64,000 nucleotides of DNA from Drouetiella sp. GTDB lineage: Bacteria > Cyanobacteriota > Vampirovibrionia > Obscuribacterales > Obscuribacteraceae. This document shows, in pieces, positions 8,732-63,098 of this stretch. The stretch covers positions 1,642 to 65,641 of the forward strand of contig DATNPY010000039.1 of NCBI GenBank assembly GCA_036702955.1, in the 5' to 3' direction. The translations under genes and the position numbers were made by a program. How positions within the stretch are numbered: position 1 is the stretch's first letter; each line of letters starts with the position of its first letter. The notes under the pieces were generated by a model, which was given only the letters and a program-made list of their open reading frames with translations, was not told the DNA's origin and made no database searches.

Positions 8732-10609
8732 TTACTTCACCGACGGGTCACTGAAGGTCGTCACCGCCTCCTGCTGCTCCTTCGAGTCGACGTAGCTGAG
8801 GGTAACGGCGTCGCCCTCTCGCACGAGCGCGAGCGAGTCGTAGACCTTGCTCGTGACGGTGAAGGTGTGGCTGTCGCCAGTGATGGTGATGTAGTAGGTC
8901 GAGGTACCGGCGACGATGTTCCAGCCGACGCGCTTCACGACGCCCGTGACAGGAGTGCTTCTGGTGCCCTGCTGCGCGACGTTGCCAGAGTTGCCGCCGC
9001 CACCCGCGATCCAGCCCTTGTAGGCGTTGAGCGCGTCCTGACGGTTGTTGGCGAACTGCACGTTAGCCGAGTCGAGGCTGTGCGCGTCGACGAAGCCCAC
9101 ACCGGCGAACGACTCCGTGCCGTTGTCTTGCGCGATGCCGTAGATGGCGACCCAGGTCGGACGACCCTCGATCTGATAGAGCTGCACGCTCTGCACGTCC
9201 ATCTTGTTGTTGGTGTTGGCCTGGATCTTCTGGAACGCCTGGTTGACGATGCTGCCCACGCCGATGCCGGAGAGCCCCGGATAGAAGGTGCCCCTGGCGT
9301 CCTGCGTGCTGTAAACGATGACACCGTTGGCACTGGTGTCCGAGTCGTTGTTCGACGTCATCGGCACGACCCACACCGGCTTGTCGGCGTTGTTGTAGAC
9401 GAGCTCGATGCCATCAGGCTTCTGCTGGTAAGAGTTGGAGAAGTTCGGCCAGCTGCTGCGCTTGTCGCTCCAGGCGCCCCAGTCAGTGAGGTAGCTCTCG
9501 ACGATGCTCCTGGACATGACGCGGTCGACCCAGACCGGCACCTTGTCGGGTGCGAAGCTCTGAATGGCGCCGGTCTGCGCGTCGACGAGCAGAACCTGCG
9601 ACACGACCTGACCCTGCGCAGCCCAGGCATACTTCCAGGCAGTGATCGTGTAGAACGGCTTCCAGCTGTCGTCGACCTCGAGCGTGGCCTCGTCCAGATG
9701 CACGCTGATGAAGCCGCTCATGTAGAGGTGCCGCTCCAGCTGACGCTCCCACGACGAGCCGGGCATCAGTTTGATGTTGTAATCCTGCTTCACGTCAGCG
9801 ACGCCGTTCGGGTCCTCGGCGTCGACGCGGATGTATCCGGGGCTGTCGGGTGCGGAATCCCAGAACTTCTTCCAGCCCGACTGGATCTGCAGCGGAGCGA
9901 TCCACCACAGGTGCCCGCCCACCGACTGCAGGGTGTAGTCCGAGATGTCGGTCTTCCAGATGCTGCCGAGGTTGCCGCCGGTGCTGCCGATCACCTGGTG
10001 ACCGCGGTACGCCGCCATAGCCTGGCTGACCATGACGATGTGGTTCGGGTCGGTGTCGGGGAGCTTGTCGTCCTTCGACGCGGTCGTGATGTGCGCGAGC
10101 CCGGCAAGGCGCTCCTTGTGCCCGGTTCCCCACGCGGTACACATCGTCCAGATCATGCAGGTGAGAGCCAGCACCACCACCGGTACCACAAACGAACCGG
10201 CTGAAGCCCAGACGGCAGTCGGAATGTCCTCAGATGAGCGCGAGGACCCGTAGGAGTTGTAACGCGACGACTGCTCGGGCTGCGGCTTCTCCTTGCCCCA
10301 GAAGTAAGAACTGACGCAGCCGACGATGGCGGCGATGAGCAGCGTGAAGAAAATGATCCAGAATGTGCCGCCGAGGAAGCCGTTGAACGTGGGCTTGACG
10401 AAGTAGAACCACAGCTTCAACCCGTACAGCACGGCGAAGCCGCCCACGAGTGCGGTGATGACGGTGTTCTTGACTTTCCTGCCGGACCAGAAGAAGGCGC
10501 CGACAGCGAGGATGACGGCGGTGGGAGCAGCCCACCAGGCAGCCAGTTGCGTTGTCTCCGATGTGAAATTGAGCAGCCAGTGGAGTAGCGCTGCGAACAT
10601 GTGTGTCAC
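8732..10609 (-). CDS. multi-pass membrane-anchored protein with large extracytoplasmic domain, compositionally foreign (high GC)
   Basis: 625-aa ORF. The N-terminal ~170 aa hold about 4-5 hydrophobic helices. No family recognised. A 60-nt line at 9001 counts 38/60 GC, against 25/60 in the neighbouring TPR gene. A 540-aa antisense shadow ORF is typical of high-GC coding DNA. Confidence 0.65.
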   Translation of the reverse strand: MTHMFAALLHWLLNFTSETTQLAAWWAAPTAVILAVGAFFWSGRKVKNTVITALVGGFAVLYGLKLWFYFVKPTFNGFLGGTFWIIFFTLLIAAIVGCVSSYFWGKEKPQPEQSSRYNSYGSSRSSEDIPTAVWASAGSFVVPVVVLALTCMIWTMCTAWGTGHKERLAGLAHITTASKDDKLPDTDPNHIVMVSQAMAAYRGHQVIGSTGGNLGSIWKTDISDYTLQSVGGHLWWIAPLQIQSGWKKFWDSAPDSPGYIRVDAEDPNGVADVKQDYNIKLMPGSSWERQLERHLYMSGFISVHLDEATLEVDDSWKPFYTITAWKYAWAAQGQVVSQVLLVDAQTGAIQSFAPDKVPVWVDRVMSRSIVESYLTDWGAWSDKRSSWPNFSNSYQQKPDGIELVYNNADKPVWVVPMTSNNDSDTSANGVIVYSTQDARGTFYPGLSGIGVGSIVNQAFQKIQANTNNKMDVQSVQLYQIEGRPTWVAIYGIAQDNGTESFAGVGFVDAHSLDSANVQFANNRQDALNAYKGWIAGGGGNSGNVAQQGTRSTPVTGVVKRVGWNIVAGTSTYYITITGDSHTFTVTSKVYDSLALVREGDAVTLSYVDSKEQQEAVTTFSDPSVK

Positions 10610-11861: not shown

Positions 11862-14231
11862 CTAAGCCGCAGGGGGACGCAAAAAGACTACGCCGGCCCG
11901 GTAGGCGTGAGTATTCCAGGCCGAGAGTGGATCGTGCGACCAGACTTTTGAGCTGGAGTGATTATCCCAGGTGCCGTCGGTTCCAACTATTCCGGTATGA
12001 GCATAACCGCCCGCTCCGCTTCCTTTGGGGCGACGGTAACCACAGACAACGTCGCCTGCGTGTGGCGTCGTTGAAACCGTCCAACCATGCGCCACCAGCT
12101 GGTCCTGAAGTGCTGAGACGCTGATCGAGTTTGCATAGCTAAATCCAGCTTCGTTCAAAACCGCGGAAACCGAAGCTGCACAGCCCAATCGTCCGCCATT
12201 CAAGTATTTCTGCCACATGGCGTGTCCCACGTTGCGGTCAGCTGCTGCCATGATCTTGCCTTGCGCATCGCTGACTGTGATATCTCCGAGGCTATGCATG
12301 CGGCTTTCCGCCAACTTGAACATGTTTGCACCGGCTTGTCTGTAGTCTGTATATCGCGAATTGTCGAAATCCGCCGCAGTGGGCGTGCGACCAAGCACGA
12401 ATGCCAGTGAGATTTTGCCCGCATCGTCGTCACTCAGCCTGTCAGGGTTTGCCCCGAGCAATTTGGCCTCGTGCTTGATTCCAGCTTCGGATACAAGTTC
12501 CTGCATCTCTCTGGGAAGAACTTTGTTTAACTGATCCTGGGTAAGCGGCTGTCCACCACCATTCATGTCGCTCAAAAATTTGAGCAAATCATTTTGAACC
12601 TGCGGATTTTCCAGAGACTTAGCGTAGTGGTCTAAAGCCTTAACTGAGTCACGTACAGGATCGTTTGGAGCGAGATGTGCTCTGTCAGCATCATGATTTA
12701 CCTTCGCAGCATAGCTTTCAATCGCTTTCTCCAGTGCTTGTGGATGCTCGCGCATGTAGGCTTGCAATTTCGAAAGGTCTGGCGGATTGCCGAGGTCGAC
12801 GCCCATCAAGTCCGCCAGTCCAAGCATGGTAAAACCCTGATTCAAGCCATATCTACCCACGCGATAGCTATGGTCTGTGTTCTCTCTAACTGTCTGGTAA
12901 GGGTGCGCCCGGTCTGGATTGAACAGCGCCGCCGCAGCATCTTTGGCGGCTGCAACTGAATTCGCTTCTTTGGGATTTTGTGGCACTGAACGAGAGGGGA
13001 TCATCTGATCTACGCCAGCAGGGCTTGCATCTCCAGCGTGCCTGCCTGGTGCTGATTCGCGAGGAATGGTCGCGTGTCCGTGACTGCCGCGAACGCGATT
13101 CATCAGATCTGAAGTGTGCTTTACGTCAACTGGCATTGCTGGTGGTGCCGCTTTGCTCACCTCGGGAGCCAGTTTCTCAGCGAATTTTTGCTCTACTTTG
13201 TCGCTCACCAGATTTTGGGGATCAGCGATTTCCACCTGCTTCAGGTTGCCTGTGCGGGTTGGAACATCTTTCAAAGCGTGGCTGAATTTATCCACGATGC
13301 GAGCGCCCTGATATTCGACGAGATCGTCAACCGCCTTTTGTTGCACTTTGTCTGGGGCACTTGTTTGTTTGGCATCACGGGCAACCTGGATAACTACATT
13401 TGCATCGTGAGGAGGACCTTCCGGATTGTGGACGACAGTTACAGAGCCATCTTTTTTGACGATAAAATTGGGCTTTGCTGCGTGCGCGTCAGCGTTCTTG
13501 TTCTCGAACACAACGGTAATCTTCGGTGCTTTCCCCGCTTCAACAGGTTTGTGGTCGGCTGCGGCATGTTTGTCTGACGCCTGCTTGAAATTTCCTTCTC
13601 TGATGTTCTGTTCGACCGACTTCCTGGCGTCAAATTGTGGCTTTTCAGCTTGAACTTGCGATGATTGATGCGCCGCGACACTGTCTCCGGTAGTGCGTCT
13701 TTCACCGTCTATGCTTTTGAGGTGAAGCGAAGGGCTGTTGAAATCAATGATGTGTGAAGGAACCGGATGATGCTTGTCAGTGAAGAGTGGGGTGAAAATT
13801 AGTGCGTCATGAGATTTTGTCAAATGATCTGATTGCGAATCGTTGCGATGTTCGGGTTGATGCGCTCGTTCCGAAAGTCTGGCATTTTGCGATAACTGAC
13901 CTGGTTTCGTCAGGTGTCGAACTTCATCGAGCATGTGATGATGAGGTTCGTTCCGATGTGCGTTTCCATGTAGGCTGCCATTGTCGCTGCCGTGAATTCC
14001 ACTGTGCTCTCCGCCGTGGTCGGTGCCGTGCACTCCACCGTGCTCGCTGCCGTGGTCGCTGCCGTGGTCGCTGGAGTGCACCCCGCCATGTCCGCTGCCG
14101 AAGTCGCGAACGTGGTTGTGCAAATGCGTGCCATGTTTGGTCAAATCATGTACGTGGTGTTCCGGCTTGTGGACCATTTTGTTCACGCTAGTCAGGGGCA
14201 GCAAATTGAATCTACCGCCAGAACATTGCAA
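11862..14231 (-). CDS. large His/Gly-rich protein with C-terminal CHAP/NlpC-P60-like cysteine peptidase domain
   Basis: N-terminal HG(S/G)(D/E)HGG repeats at about 13960-14110. C-terminal segment GRLGCAASVSAVLNEAGF...GGYAHTGIVGTDG fits a Cys...His amidase. ATG 14177 is an alternative start. Confidence 0.55.
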   Translation of the reverse strand: MQCSGGRFNLLPLTSVNKMVHKPEHHVHDLTKHGTHLHNHVRDFGSGHGGVHSSDHGSDHGSEHGGVHGTDHGGEHSGIHGSDNGSLHGNAHRNEPHHHMLDEVRHLTKPGQLSQNARLSERAHQPEHRNDSQSDHLTKSHDALIFTPLFTDKHHPVPSHIIDFNSPSLHLKSIDGERRTTGDSVAAHQSSQVQAEKPQFDARKSVEQNIREGNFKQASDKHAAADHKPVEAGKAPKITVVFENKNADAHAAKPNFIVKKDGSVTVVHNPEGPPHDANVVIQVARDAKQTSAPDKVQQKAVDDLVEYQGARIVDKFSHALKDVPTRTGNLKQVEIADPQNLVSDKVEQKFAEKLAPEVSKAAPPAMPVDVKHTSDLMNRVRGSHGHATIPRESAPGRHAGDASPAGVDQMIPSRSVPQNPKEANSVAAAKDAAAALFNPDRAHPYQTVRENTDHSYRVGRYGLNQGFTMLGLADLMGVDLGNPPDLSKLQAYMREHPQALEKAIESYAAKVNHDADRAHLAPNDPVRDSVKALDHYAKSLENPQVQNDLLKFLSDMNGGGQPLTQDQLNKVLPREMQELVSEAGIKHEAKLLGANPDRLSDDDAGKISLAFVLGRTPTAADFDNSRYTDYRQAGANMFKLAESRMHSLGDITVSDAQGKIMAAADRNVGHAMWQKYLNGGRLGCAASVSAVLNEAGFSYANSISVSALQDQLVAHGWTVSTTPHAGDVVCGYRRPKGSGAGGYAHTGIVGTDGTWDNHSSSKVWSHDPLSAWNTHAYRAGVVFLRPPAA

Positions 14232-33584: not shown

Positions 33585-35459
33585 TTGGGATGTCTGGACA
33601 ATTTTGTCTCAATCCGCGACCCTCGAAAAACACGTTCTTTAACCTTAAAATTGACCTGGAGAGGCACTTTGCAGGATAATTTGCAGCTTCCGCCCAGCGG
33701 ACCAGTGGCGGCTAAGGCTGGTCTCCGGTTACACTCTAATAGGGAATTCGCGGTTCCAAGACAAGATCTCTTCCGGCGGCTGCTTGCGGAGACGACGAAG
33801 CGGAAGAAAGCATGCGGCAAGAGTTCATTAGTCACAGCGAAGAGAATTGATTTGAGAAAAGTAGGTTGGGTAGTTATCGTGGGACTGCTTGCCATTATTG
33901 CGTGGCTGGTTTTGTCACCTTCCGGTCCGATTAATACCAACGGCAGGCACATCGACTTCTCGAACATTTCGAAGATGCAAGTGCCCGGCGTTTCGATTGC
34001 AACGATTACGCAACCAGAAACCGTCTTGTTCATGGGCACAGACGTTGTGTACGATGGTGCCGGCAGACATCTTCATGCGGACAAAGTTGCCTTGAACGGC
34101 AGGTCCGACACTATGATGCTTGTCTTTCTGAACCCGCCAAACAACAAGGTTTCCGTGCTGCACATTCCTCGCGATACCGAGGCTGCAATCGGCAAATATG
34201 GTGTGCAAAAAATCAATTCGGCCAACGCCATTGGTGGTCCTGAGTACGCAAAGACAGCTGTAACGCAGCTTCTCGGCGTGCCAATCGATCACTATGTCGT
34301 GATGAACATTCAAGCTCTGACGCAACTTGTGAATGAGCTTGGCGGTATCACTGTGGAAGTGCCCAAGAAGATGGCATATATGGACTGGACCGCAAAGCTG
34401 AAGATCGACCTGGAGCCAGGTGTTCACACCCTTACCGGTAACCAGGCGATGGGTTTCGTTCGTTTTCGTCACGACGAGTTGGGCGACATTGGGCGCGTGC
34501 AGCGTCAACAAATGTTTTTGCACGCAGTCAGTCGTAAGATGCTTGACCCTCGTTCATGGGTGCATGTTCCTGCGTTGCTCAGTATCGCTCAGAAGAATAT
34601 CGACACCGACATGACGCAGATGCAACTGATTGAGGCGCTGAATTTCGCTCACGGTGTGCCTAAGGAGAACATCAGATTTGTCATGCTGCCCGGTGAATTT
34701 TCACCGAATGGAGACTGGGTGACTGGCTACGAAGCAAGGAATGTTGCTGCCCGCCTCGCCAATCCTGATATTGAGCTGCCTGTCAGCAGAAAAAATCTTT
34801 CAATCTGTGTTCAAAATGCCACTACAGATCCCCAGTTCGGATGGAAAGTGGCTCAGGCTCTGCGTAAACTCGGCTACGTCTGCAGTCTCGGCAAAGACGA
34901 TCGGTCGCCGGTTTACACCAAATCTAGAATCATCGCACAGAATGGCAGCATCGCCGACGCAAAAATGTTGCAAAAAGATCTTGGCGATATCGGTCAAATC
35001 ATGAATGCGTCGATCGGCAATTTGACTACGTCTATAACGCTTGTTGCGTTCAACGATATCAATCTCGATAAGATAGCTATGTCGAGCGAGGATGCTCCGT
35101 ATCTCGCACCTCCGCCTCGTCCGCAATCGATGATTACGACCGTCGCGCATAATCATACAAAGCATGGCAAGCGAAATGCCATGAATACGGCTGACCTGGA
35201 ATCGACAGATTTGTCGCCTATGCCGATTGAAGACAATCAGACACTGGATGTGGTGCCGCACGAGTCTGCTACCACTCCAGAGCCGAGCGAAGCCGTAGCG
35301 CCGAAGACCAACGATGCTGTTGAAGCCCGTCAGGCGCCTGAGCCTGTGGTCAAGCCTTATACCGCTCCGGTACCAACGCCCAGCGTGGCCCCACAACCCA
35401 GCACTACGCCGGCACCGACACCAGCAACCAATCCCGAGCCTGAAAAAGCCCCGGAATAG
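33585..35459 (+). CDS. LytR-CpsA-Psr (LCP) family protein with LytR_C-like domain and Pro-rich tail
   Basis: GRSDTMMLVFLNPPNNKVSVLHIPRDT...INSANAIGGPEY...FVRFRHDELGDIGRVQRQQ matches the LCP core. Membrane anchor VGWVVIVGLLAIIAWLVL. The true start is probably downstream of 33585. Confidence 0.75.
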   Translation: MGCLDNFVSIRDPRKTRSLTLKLTWRGTLQDNLQLPPSGPVAAKAGLRLHSNREFAVPRQDLFRRLLAETTKRKKACGKSSLVTAKRIDLRKVGWVVIVGLLAIIAWLVLSPSGPINTNGRHIDFSNISKMQVPGVSIATITQPETVLFMGTDVVYDGAGRHLHADKVALNGRSDTMMLVFLNPPNNKVSVLHIPRDTEAAIGKYGVQKINSANAIGGPEYAKTAVTQLLGVPIDHYVVMNIQALTQLVNELGGITVEVPKKMAYMDWTAKLKIDLEPGVHTLTGNQAMGFVRFRHDELGDIGRVQRQQMFLHAVSRKMLDPRSWVHVPALLSIAQKNIDTDMTQMQLIEALNFAHGVPKENIRFVMLPGEFSPNGDWVTGYEARNVAARLANPDIELPVSRKNLSICVQNATTDPQFGWKVAQALRKLGYVCSLGKDDRSPVYTKSRIIAQNGSIADAKMLQKDLGDIGQIMNASIGNLTTSITLVAFNDINLDKIAMSSEDAPYLAPPPRPQSMITTVAHNHTKHGKRNAMNTADLESTDLSPMPIEDNQTLDVVPHESATTPEPSEAVAPKTNDAVEARQAPEPVVKPYTAPVPTPSVAPQPSTTPAPTPATNPEPEKAPE

Positions 35460-35525: not shown

Positions 35526-36458
35526 ATGCTAGTGGCTGGACTTTCGCTAGTCTGTCTGGATGTTACAGGTGTTTATTCGGTGTTTTTAACTCGTGGCAAT
35601 CATGTGATTCTTCTGGCATCGTTGATGGTGCTCTGTGTGCCACAGTGTCAAGCTGGAACTGGCGGAATATTCTCCTCGTCGACTTCGCCGCGACGCAAAA
35701 TCCAGCAGATTCAACCGATTGAGAGCCCAACATCTCTTCCTAATAGAAGTGTCGTAAAACCTGCAACCACTATTCCGCCCAGCCCGGGCACTGTTTTCTT
35801 CGATACTAAAAAGTCTGGAAAGCCTGATGGCGACCTTAACGCTGATAAGCAGATGCATGAGCTGCAGCAGACTTTGAGCGGCTCAAATGATTCTTCAGGC
35901 GCGAACTCGGCGAATCCGACAGGAACTAATGAAGCCTCCCCGAAAACCACTGACGGTGAAGCTATTTCGAAAAATGGCTCCAAACTGAATGTCGAGGTGC
36001 CGCTGCGAGGTTTGAGTGGCTCTGCCAGCGTCAACTCGCAGGGAACGGGAAGCATAGACTCTTTTTTTCAAATGGATAGCGGCCCCGTTGGTCGGTCGAG
36101 TAATTCCAATTTGCCAGAGCGGAATGCCGTGGCTAAATCTCAATCTACGACGCCAAATTCAGCGGAGACAACCAGGTCTGCCGGCATTGCACCTCTTCGT
36201 TTTCTCTGGCATGTGATGGATAATGCAGGCGTGCCAATGTTTTTCGGCAACAAGGACGACGATCTCGATCCCAGTCTGCGCCAGGGCTACACTGGTTCTA
36301 CTGTAAGCCGAACAAAAGCTGCTCCTTCTGCACCAGTTATTAACGTTGGCACCGCAGGCAGTGCTGTAACTGCACCGTCGCAAGGTCCACATAAGATCCC
36401 AGAGAGCGAACTTGAAGGTACTGATTCCTGGGTGAAAGATAATGAGCAAATGCCCTAG
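35526..36458 (+). CDS. hypothetical secreted Ser/Thr/Asn-rich protein
   Basis: Hydrophobic N-terminus, low-complexity body. Overlaps the first TolC-like gene by 17 nt. Confidence 0.4.
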   Translation: MLVAGLSLVCLDVTGVYSVFLTRGNHVILLASLMVLCVPQCQAGTGGIFSSSTSPRRKIQQIQPIESPTSLPNRSVVKPATTIPPSPGTVFFDTKKSGKPDGDLNADKQMHELQQTLSGSNDSSGANSANPTGTNEASPKTTDGEAISKNGSKLNVEVPLRGLSGSASVNSQGTGSIDSFFQMDSGPVGRSSNSNLPERNAVAKSQSTTPNSAETTRSAGIAPLRFLWHVMDNAGVPMFFGNKDDDLDPSLRQGYTGSTVSRTKAAPSAPVINVGTAGSAVTAPSQGPHKIPESELEGTDSWVKDNEQMP

Positions 36459-37908
36459 CCGGCTATGGCTCACGGCGACTTGCCTTTCTGCATTTTTCAA
36501 TTTTTGTGATTCGGTTTTTGCTCCGCCTGCCGCCTACATGCCGCTTGCTGCTTTCGCTGAAGGTGCTGGCTCTAAACCAAGTGAATTCCCGGCTCAGGGA
36601 ACTGTTTCTGGGCATAGTGCCAACTCGGCGCCAGACGCATCCATAACGCCAAGCCGAATGATGTCTTTGAGCGCGTCTTTCGATCGCGCCGTTGAGTTCA
36701 ATAAAGAAGCAATCGCCGCTAAAACCAACGTTGACTACGCCCGTTCGTCTATCAAAGTTGCCGGGGCCTTGCCAAATCCTCGATTCAATTTGCAGTATGG
36801 TTGGGGACCAGCTTTCCAGGTAATCATTGCTGGAAATCCGCAGCAATTTGGCTTTCAAAATCAGATTAGAACCGCAGGCACACGCACAAAATTGGTTGAA
36901 TTCGCTAGCGCCAGTTATCGCGTCGCTGAATTGCAATATGCCGCCACCATGTTCGATATTCATAATCGCGTGCGCCGTGCCTACGCTGAACTGGCTGCTG
37001 CTGAAGCTTTTGCCGATTTGATCGAGTCAGAAAGAAAAGTCGCTGTTGAACTACTGCAGACAACGCAAAGCAGGTTCGACCAGAAAAAAGTCAGTCAATC
37101 AGATCTGTTCCAAGCTCAACTTGGAGTCTTGCAGTTCGAAACGCAGCGGTTTCAGGCACAATCGCGCTTACAGACTGCTTCGGCTGCTCTGGCTCTGATT
37201 GTCGGTGAGATACCCGAAAAAATTGAAGTAATCGACGTGGACGATAATGGTCTCTTCAAGCTATCAGCGTCCAGAAGTGACCTTGTGCCTTCGCCCGATC
37301 AAGCGCTTCCTGCACTCAATGAATTGCTTCCTTCCGCACTGATCTCGCGACCTGACTTGAAGGTGGCTGTTCAGCAGAAATACGCTGACCGCCGCGCTCT
37401 GTCAGTGGCTCGGTCTCAGCGCATACCGGACCTGTTTGTAGAGATGGGCTATCAATTTACTACTTTCAAAAAGACGCAACCATACAATCTCTTCCCCGGC
37501 AGAGTGCCTAATTCGCCGGGCTGCTATATCAATGCATCTTTTGAGGTTCCGGTTTTTTATCAGCATCAGGGCGAGACCTCGCAGGCTAAAGAGGTGTACC
37601 TGCAAGACCAGGATCAGATTGAGCAACTTCAGTACCAGGTCGCTGCCGATGTGGTCAGTGCTTATGAATCCGTGTCTGTTACCAGGGCGACGATCAGGAA
37701 ATATCAACGTGATTTACTGCCTGCTGCAGCCCGCGTTGCCCGTGTCGCTCGTCGCAATTACGAACGCGGCAACACTGACCTCGCGCAGGCGATTCTCGCC
37801 AAGCAGCAATACCAGCAGATGTTATCGTCCTACTTTGATGCTGTGGTGAACTATCAGACGGCGTGGGCTGATCTCGAGAAAGCAATGGGTGTCTCTTTGA
37901 AATTATGA
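36442..37908 (+). CDS. TolC/OEP-family outer-membrane factor, paralogue 1
   Basis: Signal-like N-terminus. NPRFNLQYGWGP..., FDIHNRVRRAYAELAAAEAF and C-terminal YQTAWADLEKAMGVSLKL match the outer membrane efflux protein family. ATGA overlap with the next gene. Confidence 0.8.
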   Translation: MSKCPSRLWLTATCLSAFFNFCDSVFAPPAAYMPLAAFAEGAGSKPSEFPAQGTVSGHSANSAPDASITPSRMMSLSASFDRAVEFNKEAIAAKTNVDYARSSIKVAGALPNPRFNLQYGWGPAFQVIIAGNPQQFGFQNQIRTAGTRTKLVEFASASYRVAELQYAATMFDIHNRVRRAYAELAAAEAFADLIESERKVAVELLQTTQSRFDQKKVSQSDLFQAQLGVLQFETQRFQAQSRLQTASAALALIVGEIPEKIEVIDVDDNGLFKLSASRSDLVPSPDQALPALNELLPSALISRPDLKVAVQQKYADRRALSVARSQRIPDLFVEMGYQFTTFKKTQPYNLFPGRVPNSPGCYINASFEVPVFYQHQGETSQAKEVYLQDQDQIEQLQYQVAADVVSAYESVSVTRATIRKYQRDLLPAAARVARVARRNYERGNTDLAQAILAKQQYQQMLSSYFDAVVNYQTAWADLEKAMGVSLKL

Positions 37909-39473
37909 CCAGATCGATCTATCCGAGCTGTTCAATTCCCTGTGTGCGCGCCGGTCGTGCGTCCATCTTATCTGTGGCACTGGCTGTTGTACTTGGTGTC
38001 GCACTCGGTGTTGATGATCCGTTGCTGGCGTCGAATATATCGCCGTCATCCTCGCCATCGCATATATCGCCGTGGTCCTCGCCATCGAACATATCGCAGT
38101 CCTCATCGGCATCGTCCGAGTCCCGCTATCCGCGAACGCTGACGGCAGAGCCTGTGCCTCAACAAACCACGGTTTATGGTACCGAATATGGTTCTCGCAG
38201 AAAGTTGACGCTACAAGAATGCTTCGAGCGCGCCGATACAAATAATAAGGAGATTCAGATAGCGGCTGCGAAACTTCCGGTTGCTCAGGCGGCAATTGTC
38301 ATCGCAAAGGCTATTCCTAATCCTGTCTACAACATGACGTACGGCTGGGGACCAGCCTGGGACTACATTGTTGCCGGTAACAATCAGCAAGTTGGAATTA
38401 CCGAAGAAATTCAAGTCGCCGGGCGGCGCACGAAGAAAGCCGGTGTAGCATCTGCAAACTTTTTGCAGATGGCACTTCAGCTTGAGGCAACTCGCTTCGA
38501 TGTACACAATCGTGTGCGTAGGGCCTACGCTAACCTGGCGGCATCAACGTCTTTCTATCGTCTGGTGCGCAATCAGCGCAACATTGCAGACGAACTGGTC
38601 AAGGTCGCTGATGCAGGCGCTGACCCGACTTCCGCCAAAGCCCTGCAGGCGAGAGTGATTGTGATGCAGTTTGAAATGCAAGTCAATGGTGCAAGAAGCC
38701 GAGTCGTTCAAGATTCTGCGCAACTGGCGCTCCTTCTCGGAGAAACTCCTCATAGTGAGGAAATTATCGACATAGAGGACAATGATGTATTCGCACTCGG
38801 GGCGACAAAAAACAAAATTGTCCCGGCTCCGGACCGTGGACTGCCTGCACTGGAAAAGCTGTTGCCCGCAGCCTGGACATCTCGCAACGACCTCAGAGCT
38901 TCTATACAACAGGCTTACAGCAATCGCAAATCACTCACTCTGGCTAAAACACAGAGAATTCCAGACCCTCAGATCGGCGCAAACTTTCTCTTCACCGCTT
39001 ACAACCGCCAGCAGTTGCAAGACTTTGACCCGTCTGGTACCCGTTTTCCCGGCAATCCGCTAGACCGTGTTCCGCAGCAGCCTGCTTTCCTTCTGACGGT
39101 GTCTGAGGAAACCCCGCTGTACTATCAGTATCAAGGGCAGATAGAGCAAGCCAAAATCAACTGGGTGCATCAGCTCAAACAGAATGACCTTCAACGTGCT
39201 CAGATCGCCAACGATATTGTGGTGGCATATGAAAGTTTGCTTGTCGCGCGACAGAGCATCGAGAAGTTTCAGGCTGAATTGTTGCCCCAATCATTCAAGG
39301 TGGCAAAGCTCACGCAGCAGGGCTACAAAGCAGGTACTGCAGATTTTGGCACCGCGGTGTCGGCACAAAGCCAATATCAGCAAGTTCGTGCCACGTACTT
39401 CAACTGCGTTGTTGCTTATCAAAATGCCTGGGCTGATCTTGAGAAAGCCGTGGGAGTGCCTCTCAAACTATGA
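37905..39473 (+). CDS. TolC/OEP-family outer-membrane factor, paralogue 2
   Basis: Same conserved blocks (FDVHNRVRRAYANLAA, YQNAWADLEKAVGVPLKL). N-terminal ISPSSSPSHISPWSSPSNIS repeat. ATGA overlaps at both ends. Confidence 0.8.
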   Translation: MTRSIYPSCSIPCVRAGRASILSVALAVVLGVALGVDDPLLASNISPSSSPSHISPWSSPSNISQSSSASSESRYPRTLTAEPVPQQTTVYGTEYGSRRKLTLQECFERADTNNKEIQIAAAKLPVAQAAIVIAKAIPNPVYNMTYGWGPAWDYIVAGNNQQVGITEEIQVAGRRTKKAGVASANFLQMALQLEATRFDVHNRVRRAYANLAASTSFYRLVRNQRNIADELVKVADAGADPTSAKALQARVIVMQFEMQVNGARSRVVQDSAQLALLLGETPHSEEIIDIEDNDVFALGATKNKIVPAPDRGLPALEKLLPAAWTSRNDLRASIQQAYSNRKSLTLAKTQRIPDPQIGANFLFTAYNRQQLQDFDPSGTRFPGNPLDRVPQQPAFLLTVSEETPLYYQYQGQIEQAKINWVHQLKQNDLQRAQIANDIVVAYESLLVARQSIEKFQAELLPQSFKVAKLTQQGYKAGTADFGTAVSAQSQYQQVRATYFNCVVAYQNAWADLEKAVGVPLKL

Positions 39474-40879
39474 ACCATCGCTATCGACATAAGCCTGGGA
39501 ATCATCACCGATTGTTCGAATTTTTCGTTCGAGCACTGGCTTGTGCGGCGTTCTTAGTGCCACCACATGCGAAGGCAGAACCTGCAGGCGATGGGGATGA
39601 TTATGGCAAGGTGCCACGTCTTCCTGTGAGCAGAATATACAATTTGAATGCATGTTTTAGCATCGCCGATCAACACAATAAGGATATTGCTGTTGCCAGA
39701 CATAACCTGCAGATTTCGCAGGCAGGAATCAAGATTGCTGGAGCTTTGCCAAATCCCCAACTACAAGTGCAGACCGGGTTTGGAGATGCGTTCGAGTATC
39801 TGTTCACGGGGCAAACGCAGCAAGCGTTTTTAACTGAACAAATCCAAACTGCGGGCAAACGTTCCAAAAAGATTGCTGTTGCAAAACAGACTTTGAAAAT
39901 ATCTGACGTGCAACTTTCAGCTTTGCGTTTTGATGTGCACAACCGCGTCAGGCGCGCTTACTGCGAACTGGCTGCGGCAGAGGCGTACGACCTTTTGATA
40001 CAGCGGCAAAAATCGGCAGCATTGGAGTTATTGGAAATTGCGAAGGCTAGAGCTGGAAGCGTCAAGGATGACGCGGATGTGCTGCAGGCGAGTTTAAACG
40101 TCGACCAGTTCGAGCCGCTCCTCAATCAAGTGCAGGGGCGCTTGCAACAGGCGTCAACCAATCTTACTCTTTTGCTTGGCGAGAAGCCTGACCGCGTTGA
40201 AGTTTTCGATGTGGATGATACAGGTTTGTTCGAATCAAATAAGACTACAAACAATGTTCCTGCGCCTGAGCGTGCCCTGCCAGCGCTCGGAGACTTGATT
40301 CGGCTCGCAATTACCGCGAAACCTGACTTGAAAATGGCGCAGGAGAGAGCAACGCTCAGCCGCAAGTCGCTTTCGTTGTCGCGAGCTGAACGTGTGCCTG
40401 ATGTTTTTCTGGGCTCTGGATTCACTTTCTCCACCTTTGCAAAGAATCAGCCCGCTGGGCTTTCCGGCGCTGGAAATTATTTCGGAGAAGGTGCGTTCTT
40501 TACGATGTCGACTGAAGCCCCTGTGTTTTATCAGCACCAGGGAGAAATTAAACAAGCCGCAGCAACTGTTCGTCAGTCAGACCTGCAGGTTGACCTGCTC
40601 AGGGCACAGACTGCGGCAAGCATTGTTGCCGACTACAACATGATTAAAACAACACAGGTAAACCTTTCACTGTTGAAGGAAAGATTGTTACCCACGACTG
40701 GCGCGCTGGCTACCGCGGCGCTGGAGGCTTATAAGAAGGGCTCTGTGGATTTAGGTACTGCGATGGTCGCGCAACAACAGTCGCAGCAAACATTGTCGAG
40801 CTTCTTTGATGCCGTTGTCTCTTATCAGAATGCGTGGGCAGACCTGGAGCGTGACGTCGGAGTTCCACTGAAAATTTGA
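39470..40879 (+). CDS. TolC/OEP-family outer-membrane factor, paralogue 3
   Basis: Same conserved blocks (FDVHNRVRRAYCELAAAEAY, YQNAWADLERDVGVPLKI). Confidence 0.8.
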   Translation: MNHRYRHKPGNHHRLFEFFVRALACAAFLVPPHAKAEPAGDGDDYGKVPRLPVSRIYNLNACFSIADQHNKDIAVARHNLQISQAGIKIAGALPNPQLQVQTGFGDAFEYLFTGQTQQAFLTEQIQTAGKRSKKIAVAKQTLKISDVQLSALRFDVHNRVRRAYCELAAAEAYDLLIQRQKSAALELLEIAKARAGSVKDDADVLQASLNVDQFEPLLNQVQGRLQQASTNLTLLLGEKPDRVEVFDVDDTGLFESNKTTNNVPAPERALPALGDLIRLAITAKPDLKMAQERATLSRKSLSLSRAERVPDVFLGSGFTFSTFAKNQPAGLSGAGNYFGEGAFFTMSTEAPVFYQHQGEIKQAAATVRQSDLQVDLLRAQTAASIVADYNMIKTTQVNLSLLKERLLPTTGALATAALEAYKKGSVDLGTAMVAQQQSQQTLSSFFDAVVSYQNAWADLERDVGVPLKI

Positions 40880-41008
40880 GCATGCTCGGCTCTCTTGGCA
40901 ATACTGATTTGCGTTGATTTCATGTCTGATGGTCACATTCTTAAGCACTTTGAGTTGATCCTTTCAGGTTGTGGCTAGATAATATCCCCGGTTCTGCAGG
41001 TATTCTGA

Positions 41009-41899
41009 ATGTTCTTGTCCAGGCGATTTTCGTCTCTCGCGGTATCATTGGCGTTTCTTGCATCCGTTCCGGGCGTGTCGGCTAGCACACTGGCATTTAC
41101 TGCCAACGGTGGCAACATCACAGCTTTCGAGGGCGATTGCGAAGCTCGCAGCATAGGCGGTGTGGCGCTCCCAAAGGGCACAGTCGCGATTTCCGGAAAT
41201 ACAATCACAGTCAATGCTGTGCCAGACTGGTTATTCGACCGCCATCCTGTCCTCACAGGGGTTGTAATCAATCCATCGCTGGTAACTGCAGGGACGGCAA
41301 ATACAGTTACAGGAATTGCCTACTTTACGAAAGGCGAATGGCTGAGCAATCTGGGTCCTAATCGGGCTTCTGAATATGTCACTTTGAAGGACGGTGCTAC
41401 TTTGTCCGGGCATATCGCCGGGGCTACAACGACGGCACTAGATATGGTGCTGGCTGATGGTACACGCCGCACAGTCAATTTCTCCGAACTGGAGTCGATT
41501 ACTTCCCCTCGGGCTTATCCGTTCAAAATTCCAGCTAGTTCCGTCAAGATTGAACCTTCTGATGGTTCCTACACCGCAGAAGTGACCACCGCATCCTTCA
41601 CTCCCGCTATGTTCCATAGCCATCTCGCTTTGTTCGGCTCAAACAAGCCCCGAGTGCCTAAGTCAACTTTAGCTGGCACAGAGGGCGGTGTATCAAACAA
41701 GTATATTGCTACGATGATCGCCACAGATATCATATCTAATACCATCGCGCCAGCCATTGCGATACCGATAACGTTCACGCGCTCGACTTTGCATGCTCGC
41801 CAGTTGCTGTTTTTCAACGAAAACAACAGCGTTTCTCAGCCGCCATTTGCTCCGCAAGTCTGGTCGAATGGAACCATACACTTTTATCCCTTCCAGTGA
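41009..41899 (+). CDS. hypothetical secreted protein
   Basis: Signal peptide MFLSRRFSSLAVSLAFLASVPGVSAS. Beta-rich composition. Sits between the third and fourth TolC-like genes. Confidence 0.5.
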   Translation: MFLSRRFSSLAVSLAFLASVPGVSASTLAFTANGGNITAFEGDCEARSIGGVALPKGTVAISGNTITVNAVPDWLFDRHPVLTGVVINPSLVTAGTANTVTGIAYFTKGEWLSNLGPNRASEYVTLKDGATLSGHIAGATTTALDMVLADGTRRTVNFSELESITSPRAYPFKIPASSVKIEPSDGSYTAEVTTASFTPAMFHSHLALFGSNKPRVPKSTLAGTEGGVSNKYIATMIATDIISNTIAPAIAIPITFTRSTLHARQLLFFNENNSVSQPPFAPQVWSNGTIHFYPFQ

Positions 41900-41914
41900 T
41901 CAACACTTTCGGGT

Positions 41915-43498
41915 TTACAGGTCGAGCGGCGAGCCGCAAGCTTGTTCAAGACTTGTATACGCCTGCTGATACTGCATTACCGCGTCCAAATACATGTTGC
42001 GAATTTGAATGTTGGCTTGCTGAGCAAGAAGCGTAGAGTTGATGTCGGATTGTCCCACCTCGTAGCTGCGGCGTGATAGACGAGCCACTTCGTTCGAGTC
42101 TGCCAGCACGTGTTCTTGATAGACGCGGATTCGTTCGCGAGCGGTCAGAACATCGTTATATGCAGCCACGACGTCACCCTGAATTTTGTTTTTCTGCGAG
42201 CCAATTTCGTAGCCAAGCTGCCTTCCAATAGCTTTATATTTGGCTATGTCGCCCTGGTTCATGTTGCTTACGGGCGTTTCGATATTCAACGTAAAAAAGT
42301 TCGCGTTTAGTTTTGGTCCACTCGGGGGATTGCCTGCAACTGACTGCCCATAGGTGACTTGAGGGTTCGGCATGATGTTTGCAATAGCATTTTTCATGTT
42401 AGCGCTGTTGACTTTCAACTGTTGGTTCAAGCTTCTCAGCTCAAGTCGATTTTCCAGCGCCAGATTTATGTAAAACTGCAACGGATGCTCGGCTTTGCTA
42501 AAGTCAGGCAGAATGCCAGGTTTAACCGCTTTCAGCTGGAATGCCGAGGGTTTTGGTCCAGTGAAGTCAGGCAGCCTTGGTACCGTAATTGGTGACTCTG
42601 CCGAGCGCCCCATAATAACGTTGAGGTTTTGACCGCTGCGCACCAGGCGCTGATTGCCTACACCTAATTCGATTTGAGCCTGAGAAGTAGCCAGTCTTGC
42701 TCGTAAAACGTCCAACTCGGGAACGTCGCCAGCCTGAAAGCGCTTCGTCGACACGTTCAACAGACGTTCGGTCAGCTCATATAAATCAAAAAGCTGTTTG
42801 GCGGTTTCCTGAGCTACGACCGCATCCGTGAAGGCACTGCGGGCGGTCGCTCTCAGCGCCCACAATGTGGTCAGCAAATCAGTTTTGTTCTGGTCGTAAT
42901 AGCGCTTTGCGGACAAGACCCGAAATGCCAATTTCCAGGGCGGATCGTAAACAGTTGTTGTACCGATACGGCGTACTTGTTCTGCGATCAATCCTCTATC
43001 CATAAAGAAAGAAGGGTTCGGCGCAATCGCCGCCTGAGCAATTCCAGCTTTAGAAATGGGCAGCTGGGCTCGAATGGCGGCGGCACGAGGACTTTTGGTC
43101 AGTGTTTCGTCAAGCGCTTGAGAAAGCGTCACTCCCTCGCTCTGTCCGGGCTGCAACGGTGGCGTTTGACCCGTCGAATATTGCACCGTGCCTTTGACTT
43201 GCCCTGGTACGGTTGGAGTAATCGTGGCGCCGTTAGGACCGCCCAGAAGGTTTTGAACATCTTGAGCCGACGGTGAAACCGGACCCCGCAGCGCTGGCGT
43301 CGATGAGGCGGGCGCCACGGTCGAACCAGGCGACGTCTGACTGCTGCTTGGCGCAATCGGTCGAGCCGGTGCAGGCATTCCAGCTGATATTACATAATTG
43401 TCGGTGCCGTCCTGCAAAAACTGGTCCGCACCCCTGGCGAGTGCTGGAGCGTTATTGATTGTCAGGATGCCGAGGACGGCTAGTAAGTGTCGATTCAT
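41915..43498 (-). CDS. TolC/OEP-family outer-membrane factor, paralogue 4 (convergent)
   Basis: Signal peptide and Pro/Ser-rich linker. OEP-type repeats with C-terminal YQQAYTSLEQACGSPLDL. Confidence 0.75.
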   Translation of the reverse strand: MNRHLLAVLGILTINNAPALARGADQFLQDGTDNYVISAGMPAPARPIAPSSSQTSPGSTVAPASSTPALRGPVSPSAQDVQNLLGGPNGATITPTVPGQVKGTVQYSTGQTPPLQPGQSEGVTLSQALDETLTKSPRAAAIRAQLPISKAGIAQAAIAPNPSFFMDRGLIAEQVRRIGTTTVYDPPWKLAFRVLSAKRYYDQNKTDLLTTLWALRATARSAFTDAVVAQETAKQLFDLYELTERLLNVSTKRFQAGDVPELDVLRARLATSQAQIELGVGNQRLVRSGQNLNVIMGRSAESPITVPRLPDFTGPKPSAFQLKAVKPGILPDFSKAEHPLQFYINLALENRLELRSLNQQLKVNSANMKNAIANIMPNPQVTYGQSVAGNPPSGPKLNANFFTLNIETPVSNMNQGDIAKYKAIGRQLGYEIGSQKNKIQGDVVAAYNDVLTARERIRVYQEHVLADSNEVARLSRRSYEVGQSDINSTLLAQQANIQIRNMYLDAVMQYQQAYTSLEQACGSPLDL

Positions 43499-43866: not shown

Positions 43867-44607
43867 ATGAACGACAAGGAAAGCCGAAGTTTTTTGCGGG
43901 GGCAAATGGAGTTTACCCCTCAGCGGATGATGCGATACATCCGCTCGCGGGCGCGTTTGGCTACCGACGAAGATGTCGAGGACATCTTGCAGAACGCCCT
44001 TGTGCTGGTCACAAAGCACTTCGACCCTTCCCATCCCGAGGCTAAGCTCGCTCCCTACTGCCTGGGCGCCTGCAACAAGGCAATCGCGCAGAATCTGGAG
44101 CGCTATCACAAGGTTCAACTAAAGAAGCGCGACGAGAAGAAAACGTCTGACCAGACGGTCGAAATCGGCGTTGCCGCGCACGACGCCAACTACGACGGCG
44201 AATCGATGACTCGTAAGCAGTACGGTCTCGGCAAAACCTTCAGCGAGGAATCTTCCACATCCAATCAATGGCGAACGACGTCGTTAGACTCCATGTTTGA
44301 CGCCGAGGATGGTCGCACCGCCGACGACGTTTTCGGCATGGAATATACAATGTCTGGAAATTCTGAGGGGAATGACCCGGCGGCAAAAGCCATGATTAAC
44401 GATCTAATAGATCAGATTCTGGCTGAGCTTCCAGAGCAAATCCACCGCACCTGCTTCGTTTTGAAGTATGTCGAAGGTTACAAAAGAGAAGATTTGATTT
44501 CATGTCTAAAAATGGACCCCAAGAGTATAGATACGATCGACAAGAAAATAGTTCGAACGCTGAAAGCGTTTAAAGAGAAATTGGACAGAGACGAGGCGCG
44601 TATCTAG
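43867..44607 (+). CDS. ECF-like sigma-70 family factor with long sigma2-sigma4 linker
   Basis: Region 2-like DEDVEDILQNALVLVTKHFD. Region 4-like CFVLKYVEGYKREDLISCLKMDPKSIDTIDKKIVRTLKAF. About 100 aa of Ser/Asp-rich sequence lies between them. Confidence 0.55.
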   Translation: MNDKESRSFLRGQMEFTPQRMMRYIRSRARLATDEDVEDILQNALVLVTKHFDPSHPEAKLAPYCLGACNKAIAQNLERYHKVQLKKRDEKKTSDQTVEIGVAAHDANYDGESMTRKQYGLGKTFSEESSTSNQWRTTSLDSMFDAEDGRTADDVFGMEYTMSGNSEGNDPAAKAMINDLIDQILAELPEQIHRTCFVLKYVEGYKREDLISCLKMDPKSIDTIDKKIVRTLKAFKEKLDRDEARI

Positions 44608-44610
44608 GAG

Positions 44611-45294
44611 ATGGAAATGAACACCCTGAATGAAAAGTTGGATAAGGTCCTCGCAATCAGTGACGAGAAGAAATGCGCTGAGTCATTTGAGAAATTCTGC
44701 GCTGAGAACTTCAACGACCTGCCGCTGCCAGGAGAAAATACAAAGTTTGACGGTGCAATGTGGGCTGCGTCTCAATTTAGAGCGTTGTCAAAGACCGATG
44801 AAGCGATCATCAAGCGTGTCACCGAGAAGTTGCTTGGCGAGCAGGTCGATGTCGTGAAAGAAGCTGTCGTGAAGCTGAGAGACATGGTCGGCAGCACGAA
44901 AGAAGCGGCGATCAATACATGGCAAGATATGCTGGCTGCGATGGCGTGGCAGCAGATGGTGCCTGCAGGAGCGTTGCGTGGAGTGGGTGCGCAGTTGGTT
45001 GGTCTGGGAACGTTCCAGAAGACAGTCGACGATGCAAACATTCAAATCAATCTTGGATGGCACGTAGACACGGACCAGTTGCGGATTCTCTTGCAAGCGA
45101 AAGACAAGGAAGAAAATGCCCTGTCCAATGTCGAAATGAGAATCAACGAAGCTGAACGCGGCGTTGTCTTCTCGAGAAAGACAAATGAAGACGGTTCTGT
45201 TGTCGCTCCGAGCGTAAAGGTTGGACCGGGACAGTATCAGATTCAAGTCTTCTTTGCCGACAAAGTTGTAGAGACACCGTTCTTCCGCATTTAA
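44611..45294 (+). CDS. hypothetical protein co-transcribed with the sigma factor
   Basis: ATG lies 4 nt after the sigma gene stop, behind AGGAG. No transmembrane segment. Helical N-terminal half and beta-rich C-terminal half. Confidence 0.5.
   Translation: MEMNTLNEKLDKVLAISDEKKCAESFEKFCAENFNDLPLPGENTKFDGAMWAASQFRALSKTDEAIIKRVTEKLLGEQVDVVKEAVVKLRDMVGSTKEAAINTWQDMLAAMAWQQMVPAGALRGVGAQLVGLGTFQKTVDDANIQINLGWHVDTDQLRILLQAKDKEENALSNVEMRINEAERGVVFSRKTNEDGSVVAPSVKVGPGQYQIQVFFADKVVETPFFRI

Positions 45295-60461: not shown

Positions 60462-63098
<2,637 letters not shown>

Follow-up and report, generated by a model that had tools for sequence, protein, structure and literature searches.

A conserved triplet of coupled TolC-family genes in Obscuribacterales, a candidate heteromeric exit duct for a Czc-type efflux system

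Results

A 64-kb window of DNA (contig DATNPY010000039.1) from an uncultured Candidatus Obscuribacterales (Melainabacteria), a non-photosynthetic relative of the Cyanobacteria, carries three tandem genes, A, B and C, that encode TolC-like outer-membrane factors (OMFs). They are preceded by U1, a gene for a secreted protein, and followed by U2, which encodes another secreted protein, and by a fourth OMF gene, D, on the opposite strand (Table 1). The nearest homologues of A carry the names Candidatus Obscuribacterales or Melainabacteria, and the window, which alone represents the genome of this organism here, has the gene content of an ordinary chromosome, including dnaG-rpoD, sugar-nucleotide genes and glycosyltransferases. 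Our open reading frame (ORF) map reproduced exactly the coordinates that a first-pass annotation of this DNA had given to the six genes.

Table 1 Genes of the OMF locus and its flanks in the 64-kb window
Feature	Position	Strand	Details
OMF-A, position-1 TolC/OEP paralogue	36442..37908	+	488 aa; PF02321 x2, E = 9e-37
OMF-B, position-2 paralogue	37905..39473	+	522 aa; PF02321 x2, E = 1e-27
OMF-C, position-3 paralogue	39470..40879	+	469 aa; PF02321 x2, E = 2e-28
U1, secreted, largely disordered protein before OMF-A	35526..36458	+	Gene callers start 18 codons later (292 aa)
U2, beta-rich secreted protein with C-terminal hydrophobic helix	41009..41899	+	Neighbour of OMF-D, not of the triplet
OMF-D, fourth, distant OEP paralogue	41915..43498	−	527 aa; PF02321 x2, E = 8e-25; 26% identical to A
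LytR-CpsA-Psr (LCP) protein	33585..35459	+	PF03816, E = 6e-44; ends 67 bp before U1
Divergent extracytoplasmic function (ECF)-like sigma factor (43867-44607) and adjoining protein without a family (44611-45294)	43867..45294	+	NCBIfam matches below cut-off, mainly in region 4

Each of the four OMF proteins matched the outer-membrane efflux protein (OEP) family PF02321 twice (E = 8e-25 to 9e-37, above the 22-bit cut-off), with the tandem repeats spanning the mature protein, in agreement with the earlier description of A, B and C as full-length OEP/TolC proteins and of D as their paralogue. The shared blocks FD(I/V)HNRVRRAY and AWADLE..(M/V)GV(S/P)LK(L/I) are present as first quoted, and so are the ATGA start/stop overlaps that join the genes, which we located in the DNA at 37905-37908 (A/B) and 39470-39473 (B/C). 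Pairwise identity among A, B and C is ~43%, and OMF-B has an N-terminal linker rich in S and P as well as a longer extracellular loop L2. The OMFs fell outside the two subfamilies for which models were scored, the best OMF score being 68.1 on the TolC type I secretion model (TIGR01844, cut-off 225.15) and 60.6 on the NodT-OprM lipoprotein model (TIGR01845, cut-off 210.05). Their N-termini read as signal peptides with AxA-like ends (AFA|E, LLA|S and AKA|E), and inspection by eye, with no dedicated predictor, revealed no canonical lipobox L-[AS]-[GA]-C in them.

To place the triplet among its relatives, we scanned one genome per species with two peptide patterns specific to this OMF family, so that the 36 related loci returned (numbered L001 onwards) describe the Obscuribacterales and not the distribution beyond this order. 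All came from metagenome-assembled genomes (MAGs) of Obscuribacterales or Melainabacteria, several with evidently wrong bin labels. ORFs were called in every locus and compared with the window proteins and with the resistance-nodulation-division (RND) pump and membrane-fusion protein (MFP) adaptor from L039.

In a neighbour-joining tree of 89 OMFs, the triplet proteins formed three clean clades that correspond to gene positions 1, 2 and 3, with one member per clade from every locus covering the region. A, B and C of the window fell into the position-1, position-2 and position-3 clade, respectively, and the single-copy OMFs fell outside. Identity was 58-63% within clades and 45-51% between them. 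The copies from the window, L003, L004 and L005 formed a subclade within each of the three clades, indicating that U1-A-B-C was duplicated as one block and not gene by gene. No complete locus had lost a paralogue, the exceptions being L003 and L009, which lie at contig ends, and L038, which is full of frameshifts. Retention or loss of one paralogue independently of the others was thus not seen in the 36 related loci, and the triplet is inherited as a unit, which answers a question raised in the first-pass annotation.

The coupling of the genes is conserved along with their order. The A-to-B junction was a 4-bp overlap in 12 of the 12 loci read, and the B-to-C junction mostly likewise. At L005:11378-14873, a 3.5-kb insertion with unrelated ORFs of 231 and 433 aa lies between A and B; coupling is broken there, and B and C are intact. 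The ratio of non-synonymous to synonymous substitution rates (dN/dS) against the closest relative was 0.03-0.06 for A, B, C and D (0.03 for A), values that are approximate because dS is near saturation and that indicate strong purifying selection on A, B and C. Recent tandem duplication or an assembly artefact was considered as the origin of the triplet and ruled out, both by the deep, clean three-clade tree and by the dS of ~1.8-2.3, at or near saturation, between window-type copies and the closest relative. The triplet is an ancient, non-redundant, co-inherited and translationally coupled set of OMF paralogues, and the triplication of one OMF gene predates the divergence of these lineages.

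The first-pass annotation had also stated that the triplet has no pump partners, which is correct for the window but does not hold for most relatives. Pfam scans of ~53 of the 55 picked ORFs, which covered the whole window, detected no MFP, RND, ATP-binding cassette (ABC) or major facilitator superfamily (MFS) component, and no ORF in the window matched the RND and MFP proteins of a relative in BLASTP comparisons. Three large window ORFs (8732-10609, 11862-14231 and 60462-63098; 625, 789 and 878 aa) had no Pfam match at E <= 1e-5. In ~19 related loci, however, the identical module ends an operon in which RND, MFP, U1, A, B and C follow one another in that order on a single strand, with RND-to-MFP-to-U1 junctions that mostly overlap or abut in the loci read.

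The pump of these operons is of the Czc type. Precomputed Pfam labels of the neighbours comprised ACR_tran and CzcB-type adaptor domains, and the RND protein of L039 passed the CusA/CzcA family model TIGR00914 with 984 bits against a cut-off of 701. The motif DFGIIVDGAVVMVEN was found in transmembrane segment 4 (TM4) of 5 of the 5 RND proteins checked, all from relatives and not from the window, and we take it to be the DFGX3DGAX3VEN proton-relay signature of divalent-cation pumps of the heavy-metal efflux (HME) class. The relatives' adaptor passed TIGR01730 (152 against a cut-off of 94.9) and scored 163 on the CzcB/NccB model, below the cut-off of 319. The ancestral setting of the triplet is the end of such a Czc-type pump operon.

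In at least 12 loci (L008, L009, L010, L012, L014-L019, L021 and L022), RND and MFP are one ORF of ~1475 aa, as at L008:4693-9135, and they are unfused in L039:4938-9331. This fusion would impose a pump-to-adaptor ratio of 1:1 instead of the usual 1:2, and a literature search, which was not exhaustive, returned no clear precedent for it. In the fused protein, TM12 is followed by a cytoplasmic linker of ~20 aa and then by an extra hydrophobic segment, the counterpart of the lipoprotein signal (LLGC) on the unfused adaptor.

The window and L001-L005 represent a second, pump-less type, with the order response regulator (RR), tetratricopeptide-repeat protein (TPR), LCP, U1, A, B, C, U2, D (reverse) and sigma factor, a neighbourhood conserved in the window, L001, L004 and L005. 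L020 is a further, independent pump-less locus with housekeeping genes upstream, in which U1, A, B and C are all kept. Two sister MAGs each contain both module types, namely L004 with L008 (PLZS01000110, one 111-kb contig) and L005 with L015 (DATNPZ). The window copy is a block-wise duplicate that was detached from the pump and lies in a conserved chromosomal neighbourhood. A third type consists of single-copy OMFs (37-43% identity); those of L028, L029, L031, L032 and L034-L036 belong to classical OMF-MFP-RND operons, and locus comparison showed no adjacent MFP or RND gene for those of L024-L027, L030, L033 and L037.

U1 is the constant companion of the triplet, with a homologue directly upstream of A in every triplet locus and, in every pump-linked operon, between the adaptor and OMF-A. 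The overlap of U1 with the first OMF gene, reported before for the window, amounts to 17 nt there and to 11-23 nt in most junctions read. The protein has a signal peptide with an AxA-type site followed by a low-complexity remainder, has no conserved lipobox and matched no Pfam or NCBIfam family; only 25 homologues were detected, all named 'hypothetical'. Four short motifs are conserved, AGTGGIF at the mature N-terminus, S(V/I)ESFFQ, LWHVLDNxGVPMFxG..DLDPSL and KIPESELEGT. Orthologues from 23 loci keep these four motifs even between lineages whose U1 sequences cannot otherwise be aligned. Its dN/dS against the closest relative is ~0.19, which is approximate with dS near saturation. By these features, U1 is a predicted periplasmic protein of the short-linear-motif type without a known family.

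Searching the PDB with the sequence of A gave only weak OprM matches (E = 1e-4), so a fold search was needed to place it. The AlphaFold2 (AF2) model of A, the only one of A to D to be modelled, had a predicted local distance difference test (pLDDT) score of 87.6 and the complete topology of an OMF protomer, for which four beta-strands, two long and four half-length helices and an equatorial domain are expected, with strands at residues 114-118, 134-142, 331-339 and 360-367 and long helices at 147-213 and 374-442. Foldseek matched this model to TolC, ST50, OprN, OprM, CusC, SilC, VceC, CmeC and MtrE with template modelling (TM) scores of 0.65-0.73 at 15-18% identity, the probability being 1.00 for TolC, OprM and CusC. 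The folded cores of A, B and C total ~1250 aa.

Mapping the divergence of the three clades onto this topology placed most of it on the extracellular side. Clade-specific conserved positions numbered 3 at a threshold of 85% and 15 at 70%; of the latter, 10 map to loop L1, strand S3 or loop L2. The median length of L2 is 22 aa in A, 31 in B and 22 in C, and 15 aa in the single-copy OMFs. Loop L1 (GWGPAF..I.AGN.QQ; residues 119-134 of A, window ~36796-36843) is always 16 aa long. Surface loops are seldom so strongly conserved as this one is in A, B and C as well as in the single-copy relatives, which suggests that it functions as a cap or filter at the outer mouth. The periplasmic tips KRFxAGKA and RRxYExGxxDL and helices H3 and H8 are common to A, B and C. 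The three proteins, as far as conservation predicts, have the same adaptor-docking end and differ mainly at the extracellular cap.

The best explanation of these data is that U1-A-B-C would be the outer-membrane exit module of an Obscuribacterales-specific CzcCBA-type (HME-RND, divalent-cation) tripartite efflux system. The window copy, whose adaptor-docking helix tips are unchanged, would for that reason dock to one or more pumps with genes elsewhere, the sister operon's Czc-type pump being the probable partner. Alternatively, the window copy may have a role independent of that pump, either as a general TolC-like exit for ABC or MFS exporters or as a structural element of the envelope under the nearby ECF-like sigma factor. 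We consider this improbable: the lack of a transporter in the window and the conserved neighbourhood from RR to sigma would be expected from it, and the cyanobacterial TolC homologues HgdD and Slr1270, which are encoded away from their pumps, offer an analogy, but the window copy still shares its conserved docking tips and helices with the pump-linked copies, and U1 has been kept with it.

U2 and D are a separate conserved pair and not part of the triplet. D-type OMFs form a separate deep clade in the OMF tree, outside the three position clades, and U2 and D are adjacent in the window, L001, L004, L005, L006/L039, L020 and L022 (L039:1986-4238 and L022:13564-16334, in addition to the window positions in Table 1). 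D and/or U2 lie beside a second set of RND, MFP and AHSA1 genes in L039, L040 and L022, so that each OMF set in this lineage appears to have its own secreted companion. The AF2 model of U2 (pLDDT 77) has a beta domain at residues 26-197, for which the PDB held no match at E <= 0.001 and only small Sm/SH3-like barrels at E > 0.007; Pfam and NCBIfam gave no match. Tandem pairs of D-type OMFs occur at L020:18351-21259 and L035:67-3650, and L020 also has two tandem copies of U2, suggesting that OMF genes have repeatedly been multiplied in tandem in this order.

Upstream of the triplet, the order LytR(LCP)-U1-A-B-C recurs in L001, L003, L004 and L005, and the 67-bp spacing between LCP and U1 is that of the window-type loci. 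LCP enzymes join wall polymers to peptidoglycan, and the constant linkage of LCP to the pump-less OMF module may be a coincidence or may reflect a role in the envelope. On the other side, the ECF-like sigma factor placed immediately downstream by the first-pass annotation is indeed a protein of the sigma-70 family, but a divergent one that stays below the cut-off of the TIGR02937 model (35.8 against 42.9 bits), region 4 matching well and region 2 weakly; Pfam gave no match at E <= 0.01. The protein is 246 aa long, regions 2 and 4 being separated by a long insert, and is 98% identical to its L001 orthologue, above any of the OMFs (86-94%). In L001 and the P0001 contig the gene is found at the corresponding position, and together with the adjacent 227-aa protein without a family it may constitute a regulatory pair.

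Discussion

TolC-family ducts are regarded as homotrimers: a 2021 Chem Rev review describes OMFs in this way and mentions heterotrimers for the RND pump MdtBC only (PMC8277102). The literature that we searched has no wording for a heterotrimeric or heteromeric TolC or OMF, as the first-pass annotation had supposed, and nothing relevant on TolC in Melainabacteria.

For the triplet described here, we propose some form of heteromeric assembly, to which we assign a probability of roughly 0.55. A, B and C would be translated from one mRNA and would co-assemble into mixed 12-stranded trimers, either as an ordered A-B-C trimer or as a statistical mixture; the paralogue-specific loops would form an asymmetric extracellular cap, and U1 would act as a periplasmic accessory or assembly factor of the duct. 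The principal alternative, that A, B and C form three parallel homotrimers, each its own duct on the same adaptor, is a serious possibility, though not the one we expect. It would give the pump or pumps three alternative exits with differing caps or lumens, and co-transcription would merely secure co-expression.

Several observations argue for co-assembly and are awkward for parallel homotrimers. Across ~22 deeply divergent loci, every one of the paralogues has been kept, even where the module became detached from its pump, which happened twice independently; the block was duplicated whole, and the 4-bp coupling has been strictly maintained. All three present identical docking ends to a pump for a single substrate class, and it is not obvious why a divalent-cation pump should require three ducts whose docking tips are the same. 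Finally, subunits with such similar interfaces, made side by side from one mRNA, could avoid mixing fully only with a mechanism that keeps them apart. On the other hand, the homotrimer is the assembly mode of every solved OMF (Foldseek list; PMC8277102), and A, B and C are each separately under purifying selection.

Further points weigh against a mixed duct. The helical barrels of A, B and C have hardly any clade-specific changes, so that homotrimer interfaces look intact, with no sign of loss. Four co-transcribed OMFs of Treponema pallidum have been published as parallel homotrimers (PMC8407342). Scans for promoters and terminators were at chance level, with counts equal to those of shuffled controls, and so do not bear on transcript structure. 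We infer A/B/C co-assembly from genes and sequences, and the connection of the window copy with metal efflux comes through homology with the sister operon.

The strictest version of co-assembly, an obligate ordered A-B-C heterotrimer with an asymmetric pore and cap, would give the TolC/OMF family its first heteromeric member. We regard it as less likely than not, and the search for specificity positions neither supports nor excludes it. In that version, the triplication of the OMF gene would have fixed the trimer, which would then have been retained as a 1:1:1 coupled unit. Equally tentative, and tied to the same version, is the suggestion that U1 serves as a dedicated periplasmic assembly or plug factor whose motifs possibly contact the subunits.

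Among known systems, CzcCBA and CusC(F)BA of Cupriavidus metallidurans and Escherichia coli are the closest in kind. The relatives' module combines an RND protein of the CusA/CzcA family (DFG..DGA..VEN) with a CzcB-type adaptor; the OMFs have the OEP fold, CusC and SilC being among the fold matches of A; and U1, an extra small periplasmic protein, stands at the operon place that CusF has in cus. By contrast, there are three OMF paralogues here instead of one, the order is A-B-...-C and not C-B-A, RND and MFP are often fused, U1 is disordered and has no similarity to CusF, the window copy has no adjacent pump, and the OMF scores come nowhere near the NodT and TolC subfamily cut-offs. From its sequences, the system would best be filed among the HME-RND pumps of the CzcCBA type, distinguished by its triplicated OMF, an accessory U1 and a frequently fused RND-MFP protein.

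The tp0959-tp0972 operon of T. pallidum, with a MacB pump, the adaptor TP0965 and the four OMFs TP0966-TP0969, offers a parallel in that several diverged OMF paralogues are co-transcribed directly after a pump and a single adaptor (PMC8407342). Its pump is of the ABC type, however, the paralogues are four, and no U1-like gene is reported; its OMFs were modelled as four homotrimers 'functioning in parallel', with heteromers not considered, and in this other phylum the expansion was presumably independent.

Hetero-oligomers of duplicated subunits are established elsewhere in such machines and membranes. TriABC-OpmH has two different adaptors, tandem-encoded duplicates that co-assemble. In MdtABC, likewise, tandem-encoded duplicated pump subunits form one hetero-oligomer (the MdtB2C heterotrimeric RND; PMC8277102). 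The heteromer in both lies in the inner-membrane pump or the adaptor and never in the outer-membrane duct. Dedicated accessory proteins on an OMF are exemplified by TolC-YbjP of E. coli (9v52 and 9tg4 in the fold-search list), a possible analogy for U1 and U2, but YbjP is a folded lipoprotein, whereas U1 is disordered with short motifs and no conserved lipobox. Similar paralogues also co-assemble in mixed porin trimers (OmpF/OmpC/PhoE) and in hetero-oligomeric channels of the PorA/PorH type. Each porin subunit is nevertheless a complete barrel, whereas the OMF barrel is built jointly by three subunits, so that mixing would alter the pore itself.

Models of pump assembly, gating and adaptor docking presume three-fold symmetry of TolC-family ducts, and a lineage that has kept three duct subunits as a unit, over deep divergence and through duplication of the entire block, and often beside a pump to which its adaptor is fused 1:1, is a natural test case for a heteromeric, asymmetric duct. 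If A, B and C do co-assemble, they would provide an outer-membrane example of duplicated subunits locked into hetero-oligomers, comparable to MdtBC or the rings of the V-ATPase, and the four co-transcribed OMFs of T. pallidum, which are vaccine candidates, would then deserve the same question. Even if each paralogue forms homotrimers, the locus and its relatives would represent a previously undescribed Czc-type pump architecture in Melainabacteria with a conserved disordered accessory protein.

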